Source of the DNA: Eledone cirrhosa
Taxonomy: Eukaryota
Direction of reading: 5' to 3'
DNA: 64,000 bases
Assembly: GCA_964016885.1 (NCBI GenBank)
Contig: OZ024756.1
Span: 14,446,001 to 14,510,000, forward strand
The notes below the pieces were generated by a model that was given only the letters and a program-made list of their open reading frames with translations, had not been told where the DNA came from and did not search any database. The translations under genes were made by a program, and so were the position numbers. Positions 2,791 through 59,010 of the stretch are shown here, in pieces. Position 1 is the stretch's first letter; each line of letters begins with the position of its first letter.

Positions 2791-3231
2791 GTGGAGGCAC
2801 ATGGCTTAGTGGTTAGAGCATTGGGCTTGCAATCGAAAGGTTGTGAGTTCAATTCTCAGACCGGATGATGTGTTGTTTCCTTGAGCAAGACACTTTATTT
2901 CACATTGCTCCAGTTTACTCAGCTGTAGAAATGATATGATAGGGACTGGGGTCCCTATCATTCCACTGTAAGGAGGTGCCATGGCAAAAAAGCACCCAGC
3001 ACTCACTGTAAATGAGGTTGGTGTTAGGAAGGGCATCCAGCTGTAAAAATCAAGCCAAAATCAGTTCCCGTATGAGCAAGACAAGGTCACCCGACCTAAC
3101 ATTGCCCACAACAGGACAACCCGTCTAACCCATGCTAGCGTGGAAGAATGGACGTAAAATGATGATGATGATGATGACATACATACATATATGTGTTAGC
3201 AGAAGTAAAAGGTAAATATGTAGAGGCTTAC

Positions 3232-3602
3232 CATTGCATTGATTGTGGCTGGTAATGGTACAAAGCTGCTGGTTGTGGTCTTTGGAATACTAAAGCTTGG
3301 TGGCACTGGTGAGTCAAGATCCTTCACATCCCACCTTCGTTTATTCATTGAAGACAGAGGATCAGCTAATGAGACGGGTGTCACACTATGTGTGACAGCC
3401 TGTCGTCCAGCCAGAGATGGTACGTTAGCCAGCAGTGAACCTGGTGAATTACTGGTATTGGTACTAGCGGTGTGTCTCTGTAGCTCAGGGTTGGCTGCTG
3501 CTGCCGCAGTTCTGTGAGCTGTTGAGATGTGGTCAAATGGTGAGTGGTATGTCTGTGTGAAGTTCGTGGCTGGACAGGTGATAGGAGTATTGCTGGATGT
3601 GT
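3232..3602 (-). CDS. NEDD1: NEDD1 coding exon 12 (DTSSNTPITCP...PLPATINAM)
   Basis: 371 nt open; long pyrimidine tract plus CAG, GTAAGC donor; S/T/P-rich linker. Confidence 0.82.
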
Positions 3603-3654
3603 CTGAAGAAAAGATAAAAAGAGAGAACTATTGAGAAAGTGTTGGTATTAGGTT

Positions 3655-6060
3655 CATCATCATCATCATCATCATCGTTTAACGTCCGTGTTCCACGCTT
3701 GCATGGGTTTGGACGGGGGTTTTCCCACTTGAGGCAAGAGTGATTTGTCTTGCTCGCATAGGACTGTCTGGCAGGTTTTCTACAGTTGGATGCCCTTCCT
3801 AACACCAACCACATTTACAGTGTGGGGCTGGGAGGTTTTTACCGTGTTGCCTACACGGCCACATTACAGCGTGGACTGTGTGTTTTTTGTCGTGACACCT
3901 ACACGATCTCATTTGTTTCGGCCTGGATGGTATGGCACCAACATAACTTTACATAGGAGGGGGTGGTGTGGATGGGGTGGGGGTGGTGGGACGGGGGGTG
4001 TATTTTGTTAGAGATGCCTACTGGCTGTAGTAGGTTTTACTATGTATTTAGGTAAGACGGGTCTTCTCTATTACTGAGTACCGCCAAAGGTCTCGGTCCA
4101 GTGACATTGTCTTGGAGAGGTGTAAGTGTGTGAGGTCGGAGTTTATCAGCTCGTCCCAGGATTTTCTAGGTCTGCCTATTCCGTGGCTACCGTCTATCTT
4201 TATTGCCCTGCACTTTGTTATACAGCTATCGACTTTCATGCGTAGCCTTCTCTCGAGTAAACAACATCTGATCCCTCTTATTTCTAATTTTTTCCTTAGT
4301 TCGTTTATGCTTTGCCGTTCACGTATATTACTATTACACATCCAGCGGAGCATGCAAGCTTCGTTCCTCTCTAGTCTGCATATATCCTCTGCACACAATG
4401 CCCAGGTCTCACTGCCATGCAACATTACTGTTCGTATGCAGGCATCATACAACCTGCCTTTCATTTTTAGGGAGAACCCTTTAGCGGCTAATAGTGGTAT
4501 AAGCTCTCTGAACTTTTTCCATCCAGTTCTGACTCTAGCTACTGTACTTTCAGAGCACCCTCCCCCACTGCTGATTTTGTCACCCAGGTAACGGAAGCTG
4601 TCCACTATTTCTATAGAGCCCTCTGCGCAGTTGTAAGAGCTAGTATTTTGTGGGCACTTGCTGCTACTTATTGCACCAGAGCACCGCCCACATGTAAAAT
4701 CTATGTTCTTAGTTAGCTTACCTGTGATCCCACTACATCTTTTATGCACCCATACTTTGCATTTGGGACATAAAATGGAGTTTCTACCTACGCCTTTCCT
4801 ACACACTGAGCATGGCCATTTCCCGGAAGGGACCGCCGCCTTATTTTCTTTCCTACAAACTAGAACTTTAGTCTTAGCCAGGTTAATTTTAAGGCCTTTT
4901 GATTCTAGGCCGTGCTTCCATGTTTGGAATTTCTTCTCTAGCTCGGCCATTGATTCAGCTATGAGTGTCAGGTCGTCTGCGTATAGGAGTTGCCATGGGC
5001 AGCCGGTCTTGAACTCCTCTGTTATAGCCTGAAGGGCAATAATAAATAGTAGGGGGCTGAGAACAGAGCCCTGATGGACGCCAACTTTTACGCTAAACTC
5101 TTCACTATATTCGTTGTTAATTCTAACCTTGCTGACTGTTTCTTTATACATGGCTTGTATAGCTCTCACAAGCCATTCGTCGACACCTAGTTTTCTAAGG
5201 GCCCACCAGATAATGGAACGAGGGACTCTGTCGAAGGCTTTCTCCAAGTCAACAAAAGCTAAGTAGAGGGGTTTACCTTTAGCTAGGTACTTCTCCTGTA
5301 GTTGACGTACAATGAAAAGAGCGTCTGTGGTACTTTTGCCTGACACAAACCCGAACTGCATTTCATCTAGGTCAATTCTCTCTCTGATTAGTTGCGCTAT
5401 TACTTTTTCCGTGACCTTCATGACCTGGTCGATTAATTTAATGTCTCTATAGTTACTCCTATCTAGGGCATCTCCTTTACCCTTATAACAGTTAACGATG
5501 ATGCTGCTATGCCAGTCCTTCGGAACAACCCCATTCTGTACGACTTGGTTAACTATCCGGGTGACCATAGTGTGTCCCACCGTGCCAGATGCCTTCAGCA
5601 TCTCAGCAACTATTTCCGAAGGCCCAGCCGCCTTACCCGTCATCATATCCTTGATTGCCTTACTTATTATACTACCCTCGACTAACACTGCTGGTCCCTC
5701 TATTGGGTCGATGTGGGGGAGACTGTCTTTCTCCCATTTATTCTCCTCATTTAGTAGCCTTTCATAGTGACACTTCCAAGCTACCTTCTTATCAGCGTCG
5801 GTGATGGCAAGTACGCCGTCAACATTAAGTACACACTTCTCCCCGACAATATCACGGTTTTCCTTGACACATTGCCTAGCAATCCTGAACACCTCACGTT
5901 TTTGGTCCTCGCGTTGTAGAACATGCTTGAACTTTCTTTCCTCTGCTTCCCTTCTTGCGAAGTACACTTGTCTCCTAGCTTCCCTCCTGGCCACTTGATA
6001 GTCTTCTCTACTTCCCCCATCCCGCCATACTTTCCAAGCCTTAATTGACCCCTCCACCTT
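3655..6060 (-). mobile_element. 5'-truncated RTE LINE: 669-codon RT ORF (4048-6057), 3' UTR and (ATG)n tail
   Basis: RT motifs QFGF, AFVDLEKAFDRV, GVHQGSVLSPLLF, YADD, FRYLG; Cys-rich insert; no endonuclease domain present. Confidence 0.95.
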
Positions 6061-10946: not shown

Positions 10947-11074
10947 CTGAAAGGATTGTTCAGTGAATGATGGCCACAATAAACTGGCCATACTTTGGTT
11001 GGAACTGACATCAGAACGGGCAAAACTAGCATTGGCACTGGCGGGAGAAAATAAACAGTGACCTAATACATCAC
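10947..11074 (-). CDS. NEDD1: NEDD1 coding exon 10 (GDVLGHCLFSPASANASF...EQSFQ)
   Basis: 128 nt; ctctattacag acceptor, CAG/GTCAGT donor; FSP motif as in the NEDD1 linker. Confidence 0.75.
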
Positions 11075-11089
11075 CTGTAATAGAGATAT

Positions 11090-11600
11090 GTTGCCATTAG
11101 TTACATGTAGCATATCTTGGTGTTGGCTACATGTGGCATGTGCCCGGTGCTGGCAACATGCGGCAAACCTTGGTGTTTGCTACATGTGGCATGCAATAGT
11201 GCTGGCTACATGCGGCACACCTTGGTGTTGGCTACATGGGGCACGTGCCCGGTGCTGGCAACATGCGGCAAACCTTGGTGTTTGCTACATGTGGCATGTG
11301 CCCAGTGCTGGCTATATGCGACACCTTTGTGTTTGCTACATGGGGCATGCAATGGTGCTGGCTACATGTGGCATGTGCCCGTGATGGCTACATGCAGTAC
11401 ACCTTGGTGTTTGCTACATGTGGCGTGCAATGGCATTGGCTACATGTGGCATGTATTGGTGTTGGCTACATGCAGCATCTGTTGGTGTTGGCTACATGTG
11501 GCATGTATTGGTGTTGGCTACATGTAGCAGCTGTTGGTGTTGGTTACATGTAGAATTTGTTGGTGTTGATGACATGTGGCATGTGTTGGTGTCGGCTACA
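11090..11600. repeat. Degenerate tandem repeat built on GCTACATGTGGCA
   Basis: Recurrent TTGGTGTTGGCTACATGTGGCATG subunits. Confidence 0.85.
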
Positions 11601-12103
11601 TGTAGAGAAACACACACACACACATATACATATAAACACACACACACACACATACATATAGACAGACATACACACACACAATCACACCCACCCACCCACA
11701 TATAGAGACACAACCACACCCACCCACACACATAGACAGACATACACAATCACACCCACCCATACACATATAGACAGACATACACAACCACACCCACCCA
11801 CACATAGACAGACATACACAATCACACCCACCCACACATATAGATAGACATACACAATCACACCCACCCACACACACAGACAGACATACACAACCACACC
11901 CACCCACACACATAGACAGACATACACAACCACAACCACCCACACAGATAGACATACACAACCACACCCACCTCACACAATCACACCCACCCACATACAT
12001 ATAGGCAGACACACAATCACACCCACACACACAATCGCCCCCCCCCCCCCCCCCCCCACACATATGAACATCCAGCTAGAGTGGAAGACAAGGTAATACA
12101 GAC

Positions 12104-18788: not shown

Positions 18789-19139
18789 CTAGAACAGAGA
18801 CACAGAGTTAGAGAAAGGGAGAGAGAGAGTGACAGAGTTAGAGAGAGAGAGTGACAGTGAGAGAGTGGCAAAGAGAGTTAGTGACAGAGAGAGAGTGACA
18901 GAGTTAGGGAGAGTTAGTGAAAGAGAGAGTGGCAGAGAGAGTTAGTGACAGAGAAAGAGAGAGAGTTAGGAAGAGTGAGTTAGAGAGAGTGACAGAGAGA
19001 GAGAGAGAGAGAGAGAGTTAGAGAGAGTGTCAGAGAGAGTTAGACAGAAAGAGGAGACAGCTAGGCGGAGAGAGTTAGACAGAGAGACATAGATAGATTA
19101 GGTGAATATTTAACTGGACAGATACAAACATCTTGATAC

Positions 19140-19191
<52 letters not shown>

Positions 19192-19934
19192 GGAAAATAT
19201 TTAAATAAACAGACATTTTGATTCTAGAAGAGAGAGTCAGACAGGGAGAGACAAGGTAAATATTTAAATGGACAGATGATACATTATCACTGTTTAACAT
19301 ATAGTTCCCACACTTACCTGGGCTAAACAGGTTGTCTTAACATTTGGTACGATGACCTGTACTGTCAGATGACCCCCCCCCCCCTCCCATCTTGCTTGTA
19401 CACTCCGTTTTTTGACTTGGTTTCTATGGCTCGATGCCCTTCCTAATGCCAAACACTTTACAGAATGTACTGAGAGCATTTTATTATGGTTCCAGCATTA
19501 CTACCTTACAGAGTAGACTGGGTGCCTTTTTTGTGGCACCAGACCTACTGCCTTACAGTGCTGACTGGGTGCTTTTTATTGTGACACTAGTACAACCACC
19601 ATACAGGGTAGACTGGGTGCCTTTTTTGTGGCACCAGCACGACCACCTTACAGGATTGACTGGGTGCTCTATTTTATGGCACAAGCTCCACTATCTTAGA
19701 GGGTGGACAGGGTGCTATTTATCATGGCACCAGCACTGCCACCTTACAGGGTGGACTGGGTGCCTTTTATTGTGACACCAGAACTACCATCTTTCTGATG
19801 AAGGAATAAATAAGTAGAAAGACACAGAGTGAAAGATAGAGAGAGAGATTGGGTAAATAAATAGATAGGAATAAAACAAATAGCAGCAAGAATGGACCTC
19901 AATTATAAGCTAAAACATGGAATATTTACCACAG

Positions 19935-20335
19935 GTTATCTCATGGCAGTGAGACCAGGGCTCTGAATGACACTATGACGAACATACTCAGTGTCGCCCA
20001 GCAAAAGATGGAGCGCATCATATTGGGTATCACGCTGCCTGACAAGAAGAAGAACACTTGGATCTAACAACAGACTGGAGTCGGCGACATAACAACAACC
20101 ATCAAGATGAACAAACACAGATGTGCGGGCCACAGTTTGCGACTCAGTGACACATCAGAGTGATAGAGTGGACATCAAGAAAATGGACAAGATCAAAAGG
20201 ACGTCCAAAGACAAGGTGGCGATTTGACCTCACCAACCACCTGGGACCCTCATGGCCAGGACTGGCAAGGGAGAGAAATCAATAGAAGGGGTCCAGAGAG
20301 AGGTTCCTCCTCCATGAATGATTTCAAGACCCTGG
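19935..20335 (+). mobile_element. Decayed RTE LINE 3' fragment
   Basis: QQKMERIILGITL.DKKKNTWI..QTGV remnants with stops. Confidence 0.7.
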
Positions 20336-20473
20336 ATCAAGCATCTCATGTAACAGTGATTATTCACTTTGACAGCCAGTTGAATGAGAGATGAAGAGTG
20401 ACCAGGACTGAATCAATGCCAAGCAAGTACGAGAGAGAGAGAGAGAGTGTGTGTGTGTGTGTGTGTGTGTTAC

Positions 20474-20654
20474 CTTTCGGAACTTAATACAGTTGATGGC
20501 AGATTTGTGGGCAGCTTCTTTATAGATGAGGGCGGACTTCATTGAGCGCCGATCAAATAGATAGAGGGAACCTTGCTTGCTTCCCACACAGATCATATCT
20601 CCACAGACATCGACACATGTTAGCGCTGACTTCACAGATGTCACAGATATTGCA
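20474..20654 (-). CDS. NEDD1: NEDD1 coding exon 6 (AISVTSVKSALTCVD...AHKSAINCIKFRK)
   Basis: 181 nt; ttttag acceptor, AG/GTAACA donor; phase fits exon 5. Confidence 0.9.
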
Positions 20655-20674
20655 CTAAAATGAAACGAAATACT

Positions 20675-23600
20675 GTCAGTAAGGTATGGTTGGCATTAGG
20701 AGAAACTAGCTGTGTTAGTAAGGTAGGGGTTGGCATTAGAAAGGGCAGCTGGCTGTGTTAGTAAGGTAGGGGTTGGCATCAGGAAAGGCAACTGGCTGTG
20801 TTAGTAAGGTAGGGGTTGGCATCAGGAAAGGCAACTGGCTGTGTTAGTAAGGTAGGGGTTGGCATCAGGAAGGGCAGCTGGCTGTGTTAGTAAGGTAGGG
20901 GTTGGCATCAGGAAGGGCAGCTAGCTGTGTTAGTAAGGTAGGGGTTGGCATCAGGAAGGGCAGCTGGCTGTGTTAGTAAGGTAGGGGTTGGCATCAGGAA
21001 AGGCAACTGGCTGTGTTAGTAAGGTAGGGGTTGGCATCAGGAAGGGCAGCTGGCTGTGTTAGTAAGGTAGGGGTTGGCATCAGGAAGGGCAGCTGGCTGT
21101 GTTAGTAAGGAAGGGCAGCTAGCTGTGTTAGTAAGGTAGGGGTTGGCATCAGGAAGGGCAACTGGCTGTGTTAGTAAGGTAGGGGTTGGCATTAGAAAGG
21201 GCAGCTGGCTGTGTTAGTAAGGTAGGGGTTGGCATCAGGAAGGGCAGCTGGCTGTGTTAGTAAGGTAAGGGTTGGCATCAGGAAGGGCAACTGGCTGTGT
21301 TAGTAAGGTAGGGGTTGGCATCAGGAAAGGCAACTGGCTGTGTTAGTAAGGTAGGGGTTGGTATCAGGAAGGGCAGCTGGCCGTGTTTACTAAGGTAGGG
21401 GTTGGCATCAGGAAGGGCAACTGGCTGTGTTAGTAAGGTAGGGGTTGGCATCAGGAAGGGCAACTGGCTGTGTTAGTAAGGTAAGGGTTGGCATCAGGAA
21501 GGGCAGCTGGCTGTGTTAGTAAGGTAAGGGTTGGCATCAGGAAGGGCAGCTGGCTGTGTTAGTAAGGTAAGGGGTTGGCATCAGGAAGGGCAACTGGCTG
21601 TGTTAGTAAGGTAGGGGTTGGCATCAGGAAGGGCAACTGGCTGTGTTAGTAAGGTAAGGGTTGGCATCAGGAAGGGCAACTGGCTGTGTTAGTAAGGTAA
21701 GGGTTGGCATCAGGAAGGGCAGCTGGCTGTGTTAGTAAGGTAGGGGTTGGCATCAGGAAGGGCAACTGGCTGTGTTAGTAAGGTAGGGGTTGGTATCAGG
21801 AAGGGCAGCTGGCTGTGTTAGTAAGGTAGGGGTTGGCATCAGGAAGGGCAGCTGGCTGTGTTAGTAAGGTAAGGGTTGGCATCAGGAAGGGCAGCTGGCT
21901 GTGTTAGTAAGGTAAGGGTTGGCATCAGGAAGGGCAGCTGGCTGTGTTAGTAAGGTAGGGGTTGGCATCAGGAAGGGCAACTGGCTGTGTTAGTAAGGTA
22001 AGGGTTGGCATCAGGAAGGGCAGCTGGCTGTGTTAGTAAGGTAAGGGTTGGCATCAGGAAGGGCAGCTGGCTGTGTTAGTAAGGTAGGGGTTGGCATCAG
22101 GAAGGGCAACTGGCTGTGTTAGTAAGGTAAGGGTTGGCATCAGGAAGGGCAGCTGGCTGTGTTAGTAAGGTAAGGGTTGGCATCAGGAAGGGCAGCTGGC
22201 TGTGTTAGTAAGGTAGGGGTTGGCATCAGGAAGGGCAACTGGCTGTGTTAGTAAGGTAAGGGTTGGCATCAGGAAGGGCAGCTGGCTGTGTTAGTAAGGT
22301 AAGGGTTGGCATCAGGAAGGGCAGCTGGCTGTGTTAGTAAGGTAGGGGTTGGCATCAGGAAGGGCAACTGGCTGTGTTAGTAAGGTAGGGGTTGGCATCA
22401 GGAAGGGCAACTGGCTGTGTTAGTAAGGTAGGGGTTGGCATCAGGAAGGGCAACTGGCTGTGTTAGTAAGGTAAGGGTTGGCATCAGGAAGGGCAGCTGG
22501 CTGTGTTAGTAAGGTAGGGGTTGGCATCAGGAAGGGCAACTGGCTGTGTTAGTAAGGTAAGGGTTGGCATCAGGAAGGGCAGCTGGCTGTGTTAGTAAGG
22601 TAGGGGTTGGCATCAGGAAGGGCAACTGGCTGTGTTAGTAAGGTAAGGGTTGGCATCAGGAAGGGCAGCTGGCTGTGTTAGTAAGGTAAGGGTTGGCATC
22701 AGGAAGGGCAACTGGCTGTGTTAGTAAGGTAGGGGTTGGCATCAGGAAGGGCAGCTGGCTGTGTTAGTAAGGTAAGGGTTGGCATCAGGAAGGGCAGCTG
22801 GCTGTGTTAGTAAGGTAGGGGTTGGCATCAGGAAGGGCAACTGGCTGTGTTAGTAAGGTAAGGGTTGGCATCAGGAAGGGCAGCTGGCTGTGTTAGTAAG
22901 GTAGGGGTTGGCATCAGGAAGGGCAGCTGGCTGTGTTAGTAAGGTAAGGGTTGGCATCAGGAAGGGCAGCTGGCTGTGTTAGTAAGGTAGGGGTTGGCAT
23001 CAGGAAGGGCAACTGGCTGTGTTAGTAAGGTAGGGGTTGGCATCAGGAAGGGCAACTGGCTGTGTTAGTAAGGTAAGGGTTGGCATCAGGAAGGGCAGCT
23101 GGCTGTGTTAGTAAGGTAGGGGTTGGCATCAGGAAGGGCAACTGGCTGTGTTAGTAAGGTAAGGGTTGGCATCAGGAAGGGCAGCTGGCTGTGTTAGTAA
23201 GGTAGGGGTTGGCATCAGGAAGGGCAACTGGCTGTGTTAGTAAGGTAAGGGTTGGCATCAGGAAGGGCAGCTGGCTGTGTTAGTAAGGTAAGGGTTGGCA
23301 TCAGGAAGGGCAACTGGCTGTGTTAGTAAGGTAGGGGTTGGCATCAGGAAGGGCAGCTGGCTGTGTTAGTAAGGTAAGGGTTGGCATCAGGAAGGGCAGC
23401 TGGCTGTGTTAGTAAGGTAGGGGTTGGCATCAGGAAGGGCAACTGGCTGTGTTAGTAAGGTAAGGGTTGGCATCAGGAAGGGCAGCTGGCTGTGTTAGTA
23501 AGGTAGGGGTTGGCATCAGGAAGGGCAGCTGGCTGTGTTAGTAAGGTAAGGGTTGGCATCAGGAAGGGCAGCTGGCTGTGTTAGTAAGGTAGGGGTTGGC

Positions 23601-26600
23601 ATCAGGAAGGGCAACTGGCTGTGTTAGTAAGGTAAGGGTTGGCATCAGGAAGGGCAGCTGGCTGTGTTAGTAAGGTAGGGGTTGGCATCAGGAAGGGCAG
23701 CTGGCTGTGTTAGTAAGGTAAGGGTTGGCATCAGGAAGGGCAGCTGGCTGTGTTAGTAAGGTAGGGGTTGGCATCAGGAAGGGCAGCTGGCTGTGTTAGT
23801 AAGGTAGGGGTTGGCATCAGGAAGGGCAGCTGGCTGTGTTAGTAAGGTAAGGGTTGGCATCAGGAAGGGCAGCTGGCTGTGTTAGTAAGGTAGGGGTTGG
23901 CATCAGGAAGGGCAACTGGCTGTGTTAGTAAGGTAAGGGTTGGCATCAGGAAGGGCAGCTGGCTGTGTTAGTAAGGTAGGGGTTGGCATCAGGAAGGGCA
24001 GCTGGCTGTGTTAGTAAGGTAAGGGTTGGCATCAGGAAGGGCAGCTGGCTGTGTTAGTAAGGTAAGGGTTGGCATCAGGAAGGGCAACTGGCTGTGTTAG
24101 TAAGGTAAGGGTTGGCATCAGGAAGGGCAGCTGGCTGTGTTAGTAAGGTAGGGGTTGGCATCAGGAAGGGCAGCTGGCTGTGTTAGTAAGGTAAGGGTTG
24201 GCATCAGGAAGGGCAGCTGGCTGTGTTAGTAAGGTAAGGGTTGGCATCAGGAAGGGCAGCTGGCTGTGTTAGTAAGGTAGGGGTTGGCATCAGGAAGGGC
24301 AACTGGCTGTGTTAGTAAGGTAAGGGTTGGCATCAGGAAGGGCAGCTGGCTGTGTTAGTAAGGTAAGGGTTGGCATCAGGAAGGGCAGCTGGCTGTGTTA
24401 GTAAGGTAAGGGTTGGCATCAGGAAGGGCAGCTGGCTGTGTTAGTAAGGTAAGGGTTGGCATCAGGAAGGGCAGCTGGCTGTGTTAGTAAGGTAAGGGTT
24501 GGCATCAGGAAGGGCAACTGGCTGTGTTAGTAAGGTAAGGGTTGGCATCAGGAAGGGCAACTGGCTGTGTTAGTAAGGTAAGGGTTGGCATCAGGAAGGG
24601 CAGCTGGCTGTGTTAGTAAGGTAAGGGTTGGCATCAGGAAGGGCAACTGGCTGTGTTAGTAAGGTAAGGGTTGGCATCAGGAAGGGCAACTGGCTGTGTT
24701 AGTAAGGTAAGGGTTGGCATCAGGAAGGGCAGCTGGCTGTGTTAGTAAGGTAAGGGTTGGCATCAGGAAGGGCAGCTGGCTGTGTTAGTAAGGTAAGGGT
24801 TGGCATCAGGAAGGGCAGCTGGCTGTGTTAGTAAGGTAGGGGTTGGCATCAGGAAGGGCAGCTGGCTGTGTTAGTAAGGTAAGGGTTGGCATCAGGAAGG
24901 GCAGCTGGCTGTGTTAGTAAGGTAAGGGTTGGCATCAGGAAGGGCAGCTGGCTGTGTTAGTAAGGTAGGGGTTGGCATCAGGAAGGGCAACTGGCTGTGT
25001 TAGTAAGGTAAGGGTTGGCATCAGGAAGGGCAGCTGGCTGTGTTAGTAAGGTAAGGGTTGGCATCAGGAAGGGCAGCTGGCTGTGTTAGTAAGGTAAGGG
25101 TTGGCATCAGGAAGGGCAGCTGGCTGTGTTAGTAAGGTAAGGGTTGGCATCAGGAAGGGCAGCTGGCTGTGTTAGTAAGGTAAGGGTTGGCATCAGGAAG
25201 GGCAACTGGCTGTGTTAGTAAGGTAAGGGTTGGCATCAGGAAGGGCAACTGGCTGTGTTAGTAAGGTAAGGGTTGGCATCAGGAAGGGCAGCTGGCTGTG
25301 TTAGTAAGGTAAGGGTTGGCATCAGGAAGGGCAGCTGGCTGTGTTAGTAAGGTAAGGGTTGGCATCAGGAAGGGCAACTGGCTGTGTTAGTAAGGTAAGG
25401 GTTGGCATCAGGAAGGGCAACTGGCTGTGTTAGTAAGGTAAGGGTTGGCATCAGGAAGGGCAGCTGGCTGTGTTAGTAAGGTAAGGGTTGGCATCAGGAA
25501 GGGCAACTGGCTGTGTTAGTAAGGTAAGGGTTGGCATCAGGAAGGGCAACTGGCTGTGTTAGTAAGGTAAGGGTTGGCATCAGGAAGGGCAGCTGGCTGT
25601 GTTAGTAAGGTAAGGGTTGGCATCAGGAAGGGCAGCTGGCTGTGTTAGTAAGGTAAGGGTTGGCATCAGGAAGGGCAACTGGCTGTGTTAGTAAGGTAAG
25701 GGTTGGCATCAGGAAGGGCAACTGGCTGTGTTAGTAAGGTAAGGGTTGGCATCAGGAAGGGCAACTGGCTGTGTTAGTAAGGTAAGGGTTGGCATCAGGA
25801 AGGGCAGCTGGCTGTGTTAGTAAGGTAAGGGTTGGCATCAGGAAGGGCAACTGGCTGTGTTAGTAAGGTAAGGGTTGGCATCAGGAAGGGCAACTGGCTG
25901 TGTTAGTAAGGTAAGGGTTGGCATCAGGAAGGGCAGCTGGCTGTGTTAGTAAGGTAAGGGTTGGCATCAGGAAGGGCAACTGGCTGTGTTAGTAAGGTAA
26001 GGGTTGGCATCAGGAAGGGCAACTGGCTGTGTTAGTAAGGTAAGGGTTGGCATCAGGAAGGGCAGCTGGCTGTGTTAGTAAGGTAAGGGTTGGCATCAGG
26101 AAGGGCAACTGGCTGTGTTAGTAAGGTAAGGGTTGGCATCAGGAAGGGCAGCTGGCTGTGTTAGTAAGGTAAGGGTTGGCATCAGGAAGGGCAGCTGGCT
26201 GTGTTAGTAAGGTAAGGGTTGGCATCAGGAAGGGCAGCTGGCTGTGTTAGTAAGGTAAGGGTTGGCATCAGGAAGGGCAGCTGGCTGTGTTAGTAAGGTA
26301 AGGGTTGGCATCAGGAAGGGCAACTGGCTGTGTTAGTAAGGTAAGGGTTGGCATCAGGAAGGGCAGCTGGCTGTGTTAGTAAGGTAAGGGTTGGCATCAG
26401 GAAGGGCAGCTGGCTGTGTTAGTAAGGTAAGGGTTGGCATCAGGAAGGGCAGCTGGCTGTGTTAGTAAGGTAAGGGTTGGCATCAGGAAGGGCAGCTGGC
26501 TGTGTTAGTAAGGTAAGGGTTGGCATCAGGAAGGGCAGCTGGCTGTGTTAGTAAGGTAAGGGTTGGCATCAGGAAGGGCAACTGGCTGTGTTAGTAAGGT

Positions 26601-29600
26601 AAGGGTTGGCATCAGGAAGGGCAGCTGGCTGTGTTAGTAAGGTAAGGGTTGGCATCAGGAAGGGCAACTGGCTGTGTTAGTAAGGTAAGGGTTGGCATCA
26701 GGAAGGGCAGCTGGCTGTGTTAGTAAGGTAGGGGTTGGCATCAGGAAGGGCAGCTGGCTGTGTTAGTAAGGTAAGGGTTGGCATCAGGAAGGGCAACTGG
26801 CTGTGTTAGTAAGGTAAGGGTTGGCATCAGGAAGGGCAGCTGGCTGTGTTAGTAAGGTAAGGGTTGGCATCAGGAAGGGCAACTGGCTGTGTTAGTAAGG
26901 TAAGGGTTGGCATCAGGAAGGGCAACTGGCTGTGTTAGTAAGGTAAGGGTTGGCATCAGGAAGGGCAACTGGCTGTGTTAGTAAGGTAAGGGTTGGCATC
27001 AGGAAGGGCAGCTGGCTGTGTTAGTAAGGTAGGGGTTGGCATCAGGAAGGGCAACTGGCTGTGTTAGTAAGGTAAGGGTTGGCATCAGGAAGGGCAGCTG
27101 GCTGTGTTAGTAAGGTAAGGGTTGGCATCAGGAAGGGCAGCTGGCTGTGTTAGTAAGGTAGGGGTTGGCATCAGGAAGGGCAACTGGCTGTGTTAGTAAG
27201 GTAAGGGTTGGCATCAGGAAGGGCAACTGGCTGTGTTAGTAAGGTAGGGGTTGGCATCAGGAAGGGCAACTGGCTGTGTTAGTAAGGTAGGGGTTGGCAT
27301 CAGGAAGGGCAGCTGGCTGTGTTAGTAAGGTAGGGGTTGGAATTAGGAAGGGCAACTGGCTGTGTTAGTAAGGTAGGGGCTGGTATCAGGAAGGGCAGCT
27401 GGCTGTGTTAGTAAGGTAGGGGTTGGCATCAGGAAGGGCAGCTGGCTGTGTTAGTAAGGTAGGGGTTGGAATTAGGAAGGGCAACTGGCTGTGTTAGTAA
27501 GGTAGGGGTTGGCATCAGGAAGGGCAACTGGCTGTGTTAGTAAGGTAGGGGTTGGCATCAGGAAGGGCAACTGGCTGTGTTAGTAAGGTAGGGGTTGGCA
27601 TCAGGAAGGGCAACTGGCTGTGTTAGTAAGGTAGGGGTTGGCATCAGGAAGGGCAGCTGGCTGTGTTAGTAAGGTAGGGGTTGGAATTAGGAAGGGCAAC
27701 TGGCTGTGTTAGTAAGGTAAGGGTTGGCATCAGGAAGGGCAGCTGGCTGTGTTAGTAAGGTAGGGGTTGGTATCAGGAAGGGCAGCTGGCTGTGTTAGTA
27801 AGGTAGGGGTTGGAATTAGGAAGGGCAACTGGCTGTGTTAGTAAGGTAAGGGTTGGCATCAGGAAGGGCAACTGGCTGTGTTAGTAAGGTAGGGGTTGGC
27901 ATCAGGAAGGGCAACTGGCTGTGTTAGTAAGGTAGGGGTTGGCATCAGGAAGGGCAACTGGCTGTGTTAGTAAGGTAAGGGTTGGCATCAGGAAAGGCAA
28001 CTGGCTGTGTTAGTAAGGTAGGGGTTGGCATCAGGAAGGGCAACTGGCTGTGTTAGTAAGGTAGGGGTTGGAATTAGGAAGGGCAACTGGCTGTGTTAGT
28101 AAGGTAGGGGCTGGTATCAGGAAGGGCAGCTGGCTGTGTTAGTAAGGTAGGGGTTGGCATCAGGAAGAGCAGCTGGCTGTGTTAGTAAGGTAGGGGTTGG
28201 TATCAGGAAGGGCAGCTGGCTGTGTTAGTAAGGTAGGGGTTGGAATTAGGAAGGGCAACTGGCTGTGTTAGTAAGGTAAGGGTTGGCATCAGGAAGGGCA
28301 GCTGGCTGTGTTAGTAAGGTAGGGGTTGGCATCAGGAAGGGCAACTGGCTGTGTTAGTAAGGTAGGGGTTGGCATCAGGAAGGGCAACTGGCTGTGTTAG
28401 TAAGGTAGGGGTTGGCATCAGGAAGGGCAGCTGGCTGTGTTAGTAAGGTAGGGGTTGGAATTAGGAAGGGCAACTGGCTGTGTTAGTAAGGTAAGGGTTG
28501 GCATCAGGAAAGGCAACTGGCTGTGTTAGTAAGGTAGGGGTTGGAATTAGGAAGGGCAACTGGCTGTGTTAGTAAGGTAAGGGTTGGCATCAGGAAAGGC
28601 AACTGGCTGTGTTAGTAAGGTAGGGGTTGGTATCAGGAAGGGCAGCTGGCTGTGTTAGTAAGGTAGGGGTTGGAATTAGGAAGGGCAACTGGCTGTGTTA
28701 GTAAGGTAAGGGTTGGCATCAGGAAAGGCAACTGGCTGTGTTAGTAAGGTAGGGGTTGGCATCAGGAAGGGCAACTGGCTGTGTTAGTAAGGTAGGGGTT
28801 GGCATCAGGAAGGGCAGCTGGCTGTGTTAGTAAGGTAGGGGTTGGCATCAGGAAGGGCAGCTGGCTGTGTTAGTAAGGTAAGGGTTGGCATCAGGAAGGG
28901 CAACTGGCTGTGTTAGTAAGGTAGGGGTTGGAATTAGGAAGGGCAACTGGCTGTGTTAGTAAGGTAGGGGTTGGAATTAGGAAGGGCAACTGGCTGTGTT
29001 AGTAAGGTAGGGGTTGGCATCAGGAAAGGCAACTGGCTGTGTTAGTAAGGTAGGGGTTGGAATTAGGAAGGGCAACTGGCTGTGTTAGTAAGGTAGGGGT
29101 TGGAATTAGGAAGGGCAACTGGCTGTGTTAGTAAGGTAGGGGCTGGTATCAGGAAGGGCAGCTGGCTGTGTTAGTAAGGTAGGGGTTGGCATCAGGAAGG
29201 GCAACTGGCTGTGTTAGTAAGGTAGGGGTTGGAATTAGGAAGGGCAACTGGCTGTGTTAGTAAGGTAGGGGCTGGTATCAGGAAGGGCAGCTGGCTGTGT
29301 TAGTAAGGTAGGGGTTGGCATCAGGAAGGGCAGCTGGCTGTGTTAGTAAGGTAGGGGTTGGCATCAGGAAGGGCAACTGGCTGTGTTAGTAAGGTAGGGG
29401 TTGGAATTAGGAAGGGCAACTGGCTGTGTTAGTAAGGTAGGGGCTGGTATCAGGAAGGGCAGCTGGCTGTGTTAGTAAGGTAGGGGTTGGCATCAGGAAG
29501 GGCAGCTGGCTGTGTTAGTAAGGAAGGGCAACTGGCTGTGTTAGTAAGGTAGGGGCTGGTATCAGGAAGGGCAGCTGGCTGTGTTAGTAAGGTAGGGGTT

Positions 29601-29875
29601 GGCATCAGGAAGGGCAGCTGGCTGTGTTAGTAAGGTAGGGCAACTGGCTGTGTTAGTAAGGTAGGGGTTGGTATCAGGAAGGGCAGCTGGCCGTGTTTAC
29701 TAAGGTAGGGGTTGGCATCAGGAAGGGCAGCTGGCTGTGTTAGTAAGGTAGGGGTGGGCATCAGGAAGGGCAGCTGGCTGTGTTACTAAGGTAGGGGTTG
29801 GCATCAGGAAGGGCAACTGGCTGTGTTAGTAAGGTAGGGGTTGGCATCAGGAAGGGCAACTGGCTGTGTTAGTAA
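20675..29875. repeat. 43-bp minisatellite, about 210 copies
   Basis: Unit GTTAGTAAGGTA(G/A)GGGTTGGCATCAGGAAGGGCA(G/A)CTGGCTGT. Confidence 0.98.
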
Positions 29876-29927
29876 GAGAACTACCAAACAGGGATAGCAA
29901 TGAAATAAACATGTTATGTTTACTTAC

Positions 29928-30154
29928 TTAAAGACAGAACTATCAAACAGGGCTAGCTGACCATCCAGTCCGACACTTGCTAAGATTTGGCTGTCCTGGA
30001 AAAATGACAGGCCTGTTGCTGATGCTGAGTGGATCTGGTTGGCCGAATGTAATAGTTTGGCACGACTAGCATCCCAAATATTAATGGCTCCATCAGATGA
30101 TACGGCTCCAAGAATTGATGTCTTGTGAGGGGAGTAGCAGAGTCTGTTGATAGC
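29928..30154 (-). CDS. NEDD1: NEDD1 coding exon 5 (AINRLCYSPHKTSIL...LALFDSSVF)
   Basis: 227 nt; AAG acceptor after T-tract, GTAAGT donor; two WD40 repeats. Confidence 0.92.
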
Positions 30155-30459
30155 CTTTACACACAAAAAATAGAAAAAGAATATCATTAAAATACATTAA
30201 GAGAATATCATTTTTATTTTATTAAAAAAAAACAAAAAAAAAACGGTGGTATAAAATATCTTTGTTTATTTAGAGAGATATAAGATAGTAAATAAATAAG
30301 TACCAATCTGGACTAATAAGTAAGAGAGTTCATACGTGTGCATGGATCCTTAACTCTTGATGGAGTCATAGGGGTGCTGTAGTGAAAGACAGCATGTTTC
30401 AGGCCTTTTAAAGAAACTTGGTGGAGCCCATCAGATTTGAACATAGCTGATTTCTTGCA

Positions 30460-31092
30460 GAGAAGGAGAGAGGGGAAGAGAAAGGTAGGGAGAAGGAGGA
30501 GAGAAAGGAAGGGAGAAGGGGGAGAGAAAGGAAGGGAGAAGGGGGAGAGAAAGGAAGGGAGAAGGGGGAGAGAGGGGAAGAGAGGGAGAAGGGGGAGAGA
30601 GAGAGAAGGGGGAGAGAGAGAGAAGGGGGAGAGAGAGAGAGGGGAAGAGAGAGTAAGAGAAAGAAGAAAAGAGGAAAGAAGAAGAGAGGAAATGAGAAAG
30701 AGGAAGATAAAAAGGAAGAGAGGAAGAGAGAGAGGAAGAGAGAGAGAGGAGAGAGAGAGGAAGAGAGAGAGGAAGAGAGAGAGGAAGAGAGAGAGGAAGA
30801 GAGAAAGGAAGAGAGAAAGGAAGAGAGAAAGGAAGAGAGAAAGGAAGAGAGAGAGAGGAAGAGAGAGAGAGAGAGGAAGAGAGAGAGAGAGAGGAAGAGA
30901 GAGAGAGAGAGGAAGAGAGAGAGAGGAAGAGAGAGAAAGGAAGAGAGAGAAAGGAAGAGAGAGAGAGGAAGAGAGAGAAAGGAAGAGAGAGGAAGAGAGA
31001 GAAAGGAAGAGAGAGAGGAAGAGAGAGAAAGGAAGAGAGAGAGAGGAAGAGAGAGAGGAAGAGAGAAAGGAAGAGAGAGAGAGGAAGAGAGA
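30460..31092. repeat. Polypurine (GA-rich) low-complexity tract
   Basis: Almost pure A/G with GGAAGAGAGA(GA) periodicity. Confidence 0.95.
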
Positions 31093-39961: not shown

Positions 39962-40908
39962 CCACACAGGGATATGGTGTACCTACTATAAACCAGATAC
40001 ACAGGGATACAGTGTATCTATTGTAAACTAGATATACAGGGATATGGTGTACCTATTGTAAACCAGATATATACAGGGATACAGGGTACCTATTGTAAAC
40101 CAGATATAGACACGGATACAGTGTACCTATTGTAAACCAGATACACACAGGGCTACAGTGTACTATTGTAAACCAGATATACACAGGGATACAGTGTACC
40201 TATTGTAAACCTGATATACACAGGGATACAGTGTACCTATTGTAAACCAGATATACACAGGGATACAGTGTACCTATTGTAAACCAGATATACACAGGGA
40301 TACAGTGTACCTATTGTAAACCAGATAGACACAGGGATACAGTGTACCTATTGCAAACCAGATATACACAGGGATACAGTGTACCTATTGTAAACCAGAT
40401 ATACACAGGGATACAGTGTACCTATTGTAAACCAGATATAGATACGGATACAGTGTACCTATTGTAAACCAGATATACACAGGGATACAGTGTACCTATT
40501 GTAAACTAGATATACACAGGGATACAGTGTACCTATTGTAAACCAAGTACACAGGGATACAGTGTACCTATTGTAAACCAAGTACACAGGGATACAGTGT
40601 ACCTATTGTAAATCAGATATATACATGGATACAGTGTACCTATTGTAAACCAAGTACACAGGGATACAGTGTACCTATTGTAAACCAGATATACACAGGG
40701 ATACAGTGTACCTATTGTAAACCAGATACACACAGGGATATGGTGTACCTATTGTAAACCAGATATACACAGGGATACAGTGTACCTATTGTAAACCAAG
40801 TACACAGGGATACAGTGTACCTATTGTAAACCAGATATACACAGGGATACAGTGTACCTATTGTAAACCAGATATACACAGGGATACAGGGTACCTATTT
40901 TAAACCAG
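39962..40908. repeat. 37-bp minisatellite, about 26 copies
   Basis: Unit CACAGGGATACAGTGTACCTATTGTAAACCAGATATA. Confidence 0.95.
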
Positions 40909-41093: not shown

Positions 41094-42445
41094 AAAAAGG
41101 AAAAAAAAAGACCATATGATGGTTATGAAGCTTATAATGGTGCATTGTAAGGGTAACCCATGCATTTGTAGGGACAATGGTCTTAAAAAGCCTCTGGTGT
41201 ATTATACAGTGATTAAATATTAACTGAATATGAAATGTAAAGTAAAAAAAAATTACTTTACATCATAAAAGATAGTTATTTAGAAGTTCTACTATGTTGG
41301 TATATTTAACAGTTACTTATAAGTTCCAAAGTTACAACATACTGGTATATTTAACCCATTAGCATTTAAACTAGCCGCATCCGGTCAGAATTCCATCACC
41401 TTTTTCTTTTCAAACTGACCGTAACTGGCCACTCATACTTATGTTAAGGTATCGTTCTCAAAATAAATAATATCAAAATCTCATAGACTTGATATTATGT
41501 GAGGTAAAGCCTTTACCATAAAAATATAATAGTAAATATAGAGTAATTTAAATGGCAAAGGGTTAACAGTTACTTATAAGTTTCACTATACTGGTATATT
41601 TAACAGTTACTTATAAGTTTCACTATACTGGTATATTTAACAGTTACTTATAAGTTTCACTATACTGGTATATTTAACAGTTACTTATAAGTTGAACCCT
41701 AACCCTAGTGGTTGCATAGGTGTCAAGACTAAAGCACCCAGCCCACACTGTAAAGTGGTTGTGTTGGTGACACAATAATAAGTGCCCAGCCCACATTGCA
41801 AAGTGGTTGTGTTGGCGACACATCAAAAAGCACCCAGCCCACACTATAAAGTAGTTGTGTTGGCAACACATCAAAAAGCACCCAGCCCACACTGCAAAGT
41901 GGTTGTGTTGGCGACACATCAAAAAGCACCCAGCCCACACTGTAAAGTGGTTGTGTTGGCGACATGACAAAAAGCACCCAGACCACACTGTAAAGTGGTG
42001 TTGTAGGTGTAGGTGACAAAAAGCACCCAGCACACACTGTAAGGTGCAGGTGACAAAAAGCACCCAGCACACACTGTAAATATGGTTGGCGTTAGGAAGG
42101 GCATCCAGCCATAGAAATGAAGCCAGAATCAGTTCTGTGTGAGCAAAACACGGTCCTATGACTTGGATCTCTCACAACGAGACAGCGCGTCCTACCCATG
42201 CTAGCGTGGAAAATGGATGTTTTACGATGATGATGCTGATGATGATGATGATGATAATGATGAAACTGAATATGAAATGTTGATAATGATGTAAAGTAAA
42301 AAAAAATTACTTTACATCATAATGATTTGTGACAAAAGAATTTGGCTGTTATTTCTAGCTGGTCAAGCAGCCACATGCTGGCTTCCTTCGCTTGGTTCTC
42401 CACTATTGGGTAAATAGTGGCTGTGTTTCTTCTACTAGAACTTAC

Positions 42446-43467: not shown

Positions 43468-44336
43468 TCATCATCATCATCGTTTAACGTCCATGTTTCA
43501 CGCTTGCATGGGTTTGGACGGGAGTTTTCCCACTTCAGGCAAGAGTGGTTGTCTTGCTCGCATAGGACTGTCTGGCGGGTTTTCTACAGCTGGATTCCCT
43601 TCCTAACACCAACCACATTTACAGTGTGGGGCTGGGAGGTTTTTACCGTGTTGCCTACACGGCCACATTACAGCGTGGACTGTCTGGCGGGTTTTCTACA
43701 GCTGGATGCCCTTCCTAACACCAACCACATTTACAGTGTGGGGCTGGGAGGTTTTTACCGTGTTGCCTACACGGCCACATTACAGCGTGGACTGTCTGGC
43801 GGGTTTTCTACAGCTGGATGCCCTTCCTAACACCAACCACATTTACAGTGTGGGGCTGGGAGGTTTTTACCGTGTTGCCTACACGGCCACATTACAGCGT
43901 GGACTGTGTGTTTTTTTGTCGTGACACCTACACGATCTCATTTGTTTCAGCCTGGATGTTGTGGCACCAACATAACTTTACATTGAAAGGGGCGGTGTGG
44001 ATGGGGTGGGGGTGGTGGGACGGGGGTGTATTTTGTTAGAGATGCCTACTGACTGTAGTAGGTTTTACTTTGTATTTAGGTAAGGCGGGTCTTCTCTATT
44101 ACTGAGTACCGCCAAAGATCTCGGTCCAGTGACATTGTCTTGGAGGTGTAAATGTGTGAGGTCGGAATTTATCAGGTCGTCCCAGGTTTTTCTGGTTCTG
44201 CCTACTCCGTGGCTACCGTCTATCTTTATTGCCCTGCACTTTGTTATACAGCTGTCGTCTTTCATGCGCATCACGTGACCATACCAACGTAGCCTTCTCT
44301 CGAGTAAACAACATCTGATCCCTCTTATTTCTAATT
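43468..44336 (-). mobile_element. RTE LINE 3' end, same family; 112-bp unit triplicated in the UTR
   Basis: Near-identical to 3655-4290; 5' end abuts (TA)n. Confidence 0.9.
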
Positions 44337-57119: not shown

Positions 57120-59010
57120 TTAAGACCTTCTTCCTGCTATTTCAAGCGTTAACCTAATATATTCCTTCCATATACTGTACCGCTTAACGCTATTGAAGGC
57201 GTTACGCATGTCCAGCTTCACTAGGAAGTGAGGTGATGTGTGCTCTATGAAGTGTTTGGCTGCATGAATTGCCACCTCACGTCCACAATTAATTCCCAAT
57301 CCAAGCTGGACAGGACTGAATACTTCGCCCAGGTTACCTTGGCTGCAAGTCGCCACCAGACGTTGCTCACTGCAATGAGCCGTATGTCGCCATCAGACGT
57401 TGCTCACTGCAATGAGCCGTATGTCGCCATCAGACGTTGCTCACTGCAATGAGTCGTATGTCGCCATCAGACGTTGCTCACTGCAATGAGCCGTATGTCG
57501 CCATCAGACGTTGCTCACTGCAATGAGTCGTATGTCGCCATCAGACGTTGCTCACTGCAATGAGCCGTATGCCGCCATCAGACGTTGCTCACTGCAATGA
57601 GCCGTATGTCGCCACCAGACGTTGCTCACTGCAATGAGTCGTATGTCGCCATCAGACGTTGCTCACTGCAATGAGCCGTATGTCGCCATCAGACGTTGCT
57701 CACTGCAATGAGCCGTATGCCGCCATCAGACGTTGCTCACTGCAATGAGCCGTATGTCGCCACCAGACGTTGCTCACTGCAATGAGCCGTATGTCGCCAC
57801 CAGACGTTGCTCACTGCAATGAGTCGTATGTCGCCATCAGACGTTGCTCACTGCAATGAGCCGTATGTCGCCATCAGACGTTGCTCACTGCAATGAGCCG
57901 TATGCCGCCATCAGACGTTGCTCACTGCAATGAGCCGTATGTCGCCACCAGACGTTGCTCACTGCAATGAGCCGTATGTCGCCACCAGACGTTGCTCACT
58001 GCAATGAGTCGTATGTCGCCATCAGACGTTGCTCACTGCAATGAGCCGTATGTCGCCATCAGACGTTGCTCACTGCAATGAGCCGTATGTCGCCACCAGA
58101 CGTTGCTCACTGCAATGAGCCGTATGTCGCCATCAGACGTTGCTCACTGCAATGAGCCGTATGCCGCCATCAGACGTTGCTCACTGCAATGAGCCGTATG
58201 TCGCCATCAGACGTTGCTCACTGCAATGAGCCGTATGTCGCCATCAGACGTTGCTCACTGCAATGAGCAGTATGTCGCCATCAGACGTTGGTCACTGCAA
58301 TGAGCCGTATGTCGCCATCAGACGTTGCTCACTGCAATGAGCCGTATGTCGCCATCAGACGTTGCTCACTGCAATGAGCCGTATGCCGCCATCAGACGTT
58401 GCTCACTGCAATGAGCCGTATGTCGCCATCAGACGTTGCTCACTGCAATGAGCCGTATGCCGCCATCAGACGTTGCTCACTGCAATGAGCCGTATGTCGC
58501 CATCAGACGTTGCTCACTGCAATGAGCCGTATGTCGCCATCAGACGTTGCTCACTGCAATGAGCCGTATGCCACCATCATTCTTTCTCAGCGTCGTCAAT
58601 TTGACTGAGAAGAGAAGAGAAGAGGTGACGTGCATGGTGAGGGGGCGTTGGCACGAAGAAGCCTGCTGGTGAGAGCGGTGAAGGATCGGCGCAGCCGTGT
58701 TCCCGCCTCATCAGAGTGTGGCGAAATTAGGTCTCTGCGATGGCCGAGTCCCAGGCCATCCACTCCACCACTGGTGTTCCCTGGGAAGGATCCCTGGGCT
58801 GCTGTCATATCCTCATCGGGAGCGGAAAAGGCAGCAACACTGCCAGGGATCTGAAAGTCCCCGATATCGGCCGGTGGGTCCTGGTGCTTGAGACGGAAAG
58901 CGGCCAGGACCTCTGGTGTGGGCTGGAGTACCGTGTTGCTCGAGGCCAGCCGCACGCACCACACATGAAACGTCGCCCTCGCTTAGTTTGCGCTTAACTC
59001 GGCCACGGAG
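57120..59010 (-). mobile_element. Decayed CRE/R2-type non-LTR retrotransposon interrupted by a VNTR
   Basis: SFPGNTSGGVDGL, LRKNDGGIRLIAVSNV, PVQLGLGINCGREVAIHA, LVKLDMRNAFNSVKR. Confidence 0.8.
57349..58577. repeat. 37-bp minisatellite, about 33 copies, inside an RT remnant
   Basis: Unit GTCGCCATCAGACGTTGCTCACTGCAATGAGCCGTAT. Confidence 0.96.

Follow-up and report, generated by a model that had tools for sequence, protein, structure and literature searches.

A 43-bp minisatellite whose unit includes a branch-site motif in intron 5 of NEDD1 of the octopod Eledone cirrhosa

The NEDD1 gene and its fifth intron

The window analysed is a 64-kb stretch of the Eledone cirrhosa genome (contig OZ024756.1), in which intron 5 of NEDD1 lies on the minus strand. 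The intron runs from 29927 to 20655 of the window sequence, is 9,273 nt in length and is bounded by GTAAGT...TTTTAG. Both flanking exons match NEDD1 of Octopus bimaculoides, with the intron sitting between the two, and the exons on either side encode WD40 repeats (Pfam). The upstream exon is 87% identical to NEDD1 of O. bimaculoides and 84% identical to that of O. vulgaris. In the tblastn exon map the intron is placed behind the fifth coding exon found for NEDD1. The junction of exons 5 and 6 is in frame, with FDSSVF before it and NAISVTS after it, and the naming of the gene as NEDD1 in the first-pass annotation, made from the letters alone, is confirmed. The length of exon 6 is 181 nt, and its skipping shifts the frame.

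The intron is composed of a 52-nt head, 215 full units of 19 types and a 28-nt tail (Table 1). The head contains a short copy of the end of exon 5, and the 19-mer at this copy is unique in the genome. Judged from its sequence, intron 5 has undergone at least two local duplications, that of the array and a separate one of the exon end.

Table 1. Features of NEDD1 intron 5 and its flanks (window coordinates)
Feature	Position	Strand	Evidence
NEDD1 coding exon 5, 229 nt, WD40 repeats, upstream of the intron	29928..30156	-	tblastn; Pfam WD40; exact match of run X4 contig
5' splice site GTAAGT; sole GTRAG of the intron	29922..29927	-	sequence; X4 contig departs from the DNA here
22-nt copy (20/22 identical) of the exon 5 end (source 29936-29957); abuts the first unit	29877..29898	-	local alignment
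43-bp single-locus minisatellite, 215 full units, 212 TACTAAC	20683..29876	-	TRF; exact 18-mer count
Old variant units 3 (TAGTAAC) and 5 (TAGTAAAC)	29660..29789	-	unit typing
Stretch with six variant units, CAG 28 nt past the branch A	27372..29590	-	sequence
Terminal degenerate unit; dispersed-element match extends into the branch site	20677..20701	-	nhmmer E=0.007; shuffles 1/200; 14-mer
Likely real branch site TACTGAC, A at -21	20675..20681	-	sequence; inferred from position
U-rich tract and acceptor AG	20655..20672	-	9 T in the 16 nt preceding the real AG
NEDD1 coding exon 6, 181 nt	20474..20654	-	tblastn

An AG that ends at 20673, 42 nt past the last TACTAAC, may serve as an alternative acceptor; it precedes the main one by 18 nt. 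If used, it would add 18 nt in frame, equal to six residues in a WD40 blade. NEDD1 also contains a second, older array with a 26-bp unit (window 11096-11603, minus strand). The acceptor there is at 11074, and at a distance of about 25 nt from it is ACTAAT, a likely branch site; the array runs right up to this motif but does not take it in.

Anatomy of the array

The array covers 9.19 of the 9.27 kb of the intron (99%) and has a TRF score of 15,388, which is far beyond chance. It has 216 unit starts; of its 215 full units, 208 are 43 nt long, three 44 nt, three 26 nt and one 39 nt. This head-to-tail order of 43-bp units, with 19 variant types, is that of a minisatellite. On the NEDD1 sense strand TACTAAC occurs 212 times and is directly followed by ACAG in every case (212/212). 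The three units without it contain TAGTAAC or TAGTAAAC instead, while the remaining 55 kb of the window include TACTAAC just once. The first-pass annotation had counted about 210 copies within about 9.2 of the 9.27 kb, with TACTAAC and then AG in essentially every unit, and had taken the TACTGAC next to the acceptor for both the likely branch point and the last degenerate unit. All of this agrees with the present results: the terminal TACTGAC is in register with the array, begins the intron tail and has its A 21 nt from the acceptor.

In the 3.0 Gb of the genome, one 18-mer of the unit has 208 exact matches, each of them on the minus strand, and the 100 of these that were listed are all inside the window array, where 212 units contain the motif. 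The array is a single-locus minisatellite. A dispersed satellite family was ruled out, the unit 18-mer being confined to one strand and, among the matches listed, to this array.

It is very improbable that the array, though real, is overstated in length by the assembly. Short-read contigs break at the array, and the copy number is known from the assembly alone. Against an inflated count, the 19 unit types follow one another in a non-periodic order with regional variants, and no exact internal repeat exceeds 665 bp, a length that long reads can span. No higher-order period was found: across the lags tried, unit-type identity stayed within 0.24-0.35. Units 5 and 199 (the latter at 21350-21393) have the same sequence.

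A structured RNA was rejected, as there was no Rfam match within window positions 19000-31000 and the last 261 nt of the intron fold no better than shuffled sequences (z=+1.17). The same weak folding means that the TACTAAC sites are likely to be exposed.

Kinship of the unit to a dispersed element

About 29 of the 43 bases of the unit (about two-thirds) resemble an abundant dispersed element, more than 20 copies of which are present in the rest of the window. One 24-mer of the element, picked after inspection of the terminal unit, has 2,301 exact copies in the genome, compared to 0 for the control. A set of 21 window copies was identified independently of this 24-mer. Against these, the unit core has a score of 38, while the maximum among 200 dinucleotide shuffles was 33 (0/200 reach it). 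The ungapped identity of the core has a median of 23/29, whether 50 copies or just those in the window are compared.

The end of the intron shows the same kinship. The score of the terminal 67 nt against the element copies was matched by 1/200 shuffles, and that of the last 120 nt by 3/200. A profile of 30 element copies (nhmmer) matches the terminal unit from 20701 to 20677, reaching into the branch site, with E=0.007. The same profile gives 206 hits in the array at E up to 10, the best listed being about 0.003. The 14-mer CCTAATGCCAACCA of the older dispersed element is kept, among the units, by the terminal unit only. This retention, together with the register of the terminal unit, supports the earlier proposal that the amplified segment included the branch point. 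The kinship of most of the unit to a dispersed repeat had itself been missed by the first-pass annotation, as had the abundance of long minisatellites in this genome.

At one end of the element there is a (CAT)n run, found in 36/50 copies versus 8/50 for a control stretch. On the likely sense strand of the element an A box of pol III was found in 1/50 and a B box in 4/50 copies. The end of the element looks like a retroposon tail and would be antisense to NEDD1; "SINE-like" serves here as a label for an element whose class is not established.

As a frequent seed of arrays at 27-57 nt spacing the element core was rejected, with only four tandem matches at two other loci. The 48-bp part of the element does form arrays, accounting for 2/41 of those in the genome background described below. 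The dispersed element is also found in 48-bp and 112-bp tandem arrays of its own, with up to 59 copies. These are located at 19454-19793, 41731-42046 and 43565-43907 of the window, and at 3153-5991 of stretch L042 and 327-1291 of stretch L060.

Genome background and chance

The background consisted of 400 kb, half of it neighbouring sequence (200 kb) and the other half 20 stretches of 10 kb spaced apart, with arrays defined by a period of 20-120 and at least five copies. It contains 41 arrays, which cover 13.5% of the sequence, and three of these are of at least 5 kb. Long (multi-kb) minisatellites are commonplace in this genome. Within the window there are two unrelated 37-bp minisatellites, at 39964-40908 and 57349-58579; the one at 39964 has a unit similar to a 37-bp array in the neighbour stretch L071, about 48 kb to the left in the genome.

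TACTAAC was absent from the background arrays (0/41). When the unit is shuffled, the motif arises on a given strand in 0.53% of cases. Its presence in the NEDD1 unit is one event with a chance of about 0.5%, and not 212 independent events. About 57-95 arrays of at least 5 kb would be expected by chance over a branch site, and about 120 with TACTAAC on a given strand; the estimate is rough, with 150,000-250,000 introns assumed and only three arrays behind it.

Three TACTAAC at 30-50 nt spacing have 56,322 matches genome-wide, all 100 listed being from one ACT/ACC-rich array. The source of these is a 32-bp array (G000:C1:1530952-1540340) with scores of TACTAAC copies. The pattern read backwards gave 6,074 matches and is not a fair null, because ACT/ACC-rich satellites readily give TACTAAC. 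Paired TACTAACACAG was found at 13 other loci among the first 100 of 342 matches. Of these matches, 77 are in one stretch of about 17 kb (G000:C4:331522867-331539834), where a CA-rich repeat of roughly 35 bp carries many copies of TACTAACACAG. Both counts agree with a motif that is not rare in arrays.

Within the array, 1/12 of the substitution alleles fall in the 7-nt motif versus 2.0 expected (P=0.40, of low power with 12 alleles). The motif shows no more conservation than the remainder of the unit, and at this low power there is no sign of selection.

Splicing potential of the internal copies

Nearly all units have AGs 5 and 9 nt past the branch A, with the next AG at 48 nt. In the mammalian data described in PMC1431707, AGs nearer than 12-15 nt to the branch A can be bypassed. 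As the AGs at +5 and +9 beside the internal motifs are inside this zone, they are too close for normal use, and the significance given earlier to the AG that follows each motif finds no support. The 16 nt before the AG contain 2-5 T inside the units versus 9 at the real acceptor. From their sequence, the six variant units with a CAG further downstream (G at 29556, 29444, 29272, 29143, 28111 and 27380) are the only candidate decoys with normal acceptor geometry. A cryptic exon in the array was rejected, as the nearest donor-like GT past these six is a weak GTAAAC about 6 kb downstream. Recursive splicing, which the first-pass annotation had also suggested, was ruled out at canonical ratchet points: the 9,273-nt intron contains neither AGGT nor AGGC (0 and 0).

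Eight sequencing runs were available, none of them on record as RNA, and four were compared with 29878-30400. Run X4, from a second sample of the same organism, yielded a 2,623-nt contig which is identical to 29928-30156 throughout and does not extend over the intron head. The contig extends at least 825 nt to either side of the exon 5 match and has a depth of 8.7. The DNA contigs of X1 and X3, both of one sample which may be the source of the window, stop 31 letters beyond 29878, within the first unit. Contigs that enter the array break there, so the main X4 transcript runs from the exon 5 donor to unique sequence. The X4 contig is likely to be cDNA which leaves exon 5 at the normal donor, and it informs on the donor side only. 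This RNA evidence consists of one low-depth contig from one sample, and contigs drop rare forms.

Run X5 is from another organism, a relative, and differs from the window at 13 positions over 254 nt. The match ends 12 nt into the intron, and the contig continues for 91 further letters which do not fit the window. Contigs of X5 also match the intron head at 29885-29921 at low likeness, joined to a high-copy repeat at 30332-30399; this may be chance. The share of words present in the DNA runs was 0.63-0.67 versus 0.60 expected from the unique part alone, and such shares are no guide to array words in X4 or X5.

Possible regulatory roles

Binding of QKI or SF1 to the array is likely in the chemical sense, given the motif, and an effect on NEDD1 is putative. 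In the regulatory reading in cis, the array would load QKI/HOW-type dimers or SF1 beside the real branch site and slow the removal of intron 5 or repress exon 6. Skipping would shift the frame and lower NEDD1 output in QKI-rich tissues or on long alleles. Bipartite sites, consisting of the motif and a half site, are present in 209/212 units, and the nearest TACTAAC is 39 nt upstream of the terminal motif. The genome contains a gene with a STAR dimerisation domain, and both the weak folding of the last 261 nt and the frame-shifting length of exon 6 suit such a role. Two ACUAAC copies at the branch site are reported to be enough for QKI to block splicing in RAI14 (PMC13004596). The 3-7 UACUAAC repeats of Gomafu are described as binding SF1 and slowing the in vitro splicing of a weak substrate (PMC3116199; also PMC9221589). 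On the other side, the X4 contig is unbranched at the donor, albeit at low depth, the motif lacks excess conservation and the intron head of the relative (X5) ceases to match after 12 nt. Regulation in cis is considered unlikely.

The fuller form of this proposal, in which the array is a length-tunable landing strip for QKI/HOW, with length and tissue setting the skipping of exon 6 and the dose of the centrosomal NEDD1, is distinctly unlikely. If true, the array would be one of a set of octopod splice-signal arrays which turn repeat length into splicing variation. An effect of array length on the use of exon 6 would tie a hypervariable repeat to splicing through competition between QKI and SF1.

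A few nascent molecules would offer hundreds of sites to a much larger pool of protein. This weighs against a sponge acting in trans, in which the nascent intron or lariat would titrate SF1 or QKI and alter the splicing of other genes; the first-pass annotation had suggested that the decoy sites may sequester SF1/QKI-type proteins. The 212 copies do exceed the 3-7 of Gomafu/MIAT (PMC3116199), but the host RNA here is an intron of a protein-coding gene and not a stable nuclear RNA. The array also makes up less than 0.4% of the 56,322 clustered TACTAAC matches, counted in DNA regardless of transcription. Titration in trans is extremely improbable. Of the earlier view of the locus as an array of decoys, the anatomy, the counts and the amplification are supported; recursive splicing, the role of the AG and a cell-wide sponge are not, and the decoy reading itself finds no support.

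Origin of the array

Given the likeness of the unit to a very abundant dispersed repeat, local slippage within a short intron is the likely mode of growth of the array. With the array removed the intron measures 80-119 nt, and a short ancestral intron is inferred. The ancestral intron 5 would have been of this length, with a fragment of the dispersed repeat next to its branch site. In an intron of that size, duplicating 43 nt with the two splice sites left intact would frequently take in the branch site. Two similar words, CTTACT(A/G)AC..AG, may have started the process through slippage or unequal exchange. Later turnover would have homogenised the middle of the array, leaving older variants at both ends. 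Only the last motif would combine a usable AG with a U-rich tract and, for exon definition, a donor further downstream; the internal motifs, lacking these, would be silent.

Another origin of the motif may be envisaged at the opposite end of the intron, where a mirage-type duplication of the upstream exon end and donor would, after decay, have given rise to TACTAAC, with the terminal unit becoming or replacing the branch site later. The 22-nt exon-end copy is directly ahead of unit 1, and units 5 and 199, near both array ends, read CTTAGTAAACA, like exon end plus donor with two gaps. However, the alignment of the intron head to the exon ends after 22 nt, and the terminal unit, which is nearest to the dispersed element, has TACT and not TAGT. 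Derivation from the donor is very doubtful.

Passive growth of a single-locus minisatellite, from a short intron with a dispersed-repeat fragment beside its branch site, is the probable explanation, the terminal branch site and acceptor still being in use. Two observations run counter to it: the motif is uncommon per array, as the background arrays show, and the array ends exactly at the branch site.

Comparison with known systems

The NEDD1 array shares features with several described classes of repeat. A search by title and the start of abstracts, with most subscription journals and supplements outside its scope, found no branch-site minisatellite in the literature. The mirages of amphioxus (Adh3 and the globins BflGb6 and BflGb9; PMC3087553) are likewise intronic tandem arrays formed from local splice-signal sequence, and in both cases the ends escape homogenisation. 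Mirage repeats are reported to leave regular splicing apparently undisturbed (PMC3087553), and for NEDD1 the donor side is clean in one contig. The mirage unit spans the exon-intron boundary, whereas the NEDD1 unit is without exon letters and stops 18 nt short of the acceptor; the unit number is 215 in NEDD1 versus 3-6 in BflGb6 (PMC3087553). Identity with a mirage was rejected, as the unit holds no exon sequence and the single 22-nt exon copy is outside the array.

The "sequence stuttering" of avian dot chromosomes, which has intron and exon types (PMC12954441), is similar in that imperfect tandem copies of local sequence fill an intron, and a separate short copy of the edge of the neighbouring exon is found in the same intron. 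The NEDD1 intron has the marks of intron stuttering, with 99% of its length in imperfect local repeats at a single locus and the terminal unit in register. Both have a G-rich strand with two-tier quadruplex-like motifs, of which NEDD1 has 209, with 0 of three tiers. Unlike the avian cases, the NEDD1 array is from a mollusc and has AT-rich surroundings. The stuttering class is described as marked by large length polymorphism in the population, and the word "branch" is absent from the main text of that paper (PMC12954441).

Transposon-derived minisatellites are reported to make up at least 23% of human mini/satellites (PMC3389668). The NEDD1 unit resembles these as part of an abundant dispersed element expanded by local duplication, and its likeness to the element is beyond chance. 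It differs in that only about 29 of 43 nt match and the class of the element is not established.

Gomafu/MIAT (PMC3116199), RAI14 (PMC13004596) and the NEDD1 array have tandem UACUAAC in common and are in principle able to bind SF1 or QKI. Gomafu is described as a stable nuclear non-coding RNA with repeats conserved from chicken to human (PMC3116199), whereas the repeats of NEDD1 are intronic, belong to a coding gene and are not part of an exon of such an RNA.

The 37-bp VNTR of human F7 intron 7 (PMC1557585), like the amphioxus mirages (PMC3087553), consists of repeated splice signals of which only the edge copy is used, a use that is putative for NEDD1. In F7 the copies are of a donor and their use was tested by mutagenesis (PMC1557585), while the branch-site copies of NEDD1 are known from sequence. 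The NEDD1 array is real, large and likely a passive intronic minisatellite, the unit of which happens to include a branch site. On this likely reading it is an ordinary repeat, yet a usable natural experiment on branch-site choice. Over 200 branch motifs of optimal sequence are probably passed over in favour of a slightly weaker one downstream. As with the donors of F7 intron 7, their probable neglect favours the U-rich tract, the AG and exon definition over the strength of the branch motif.
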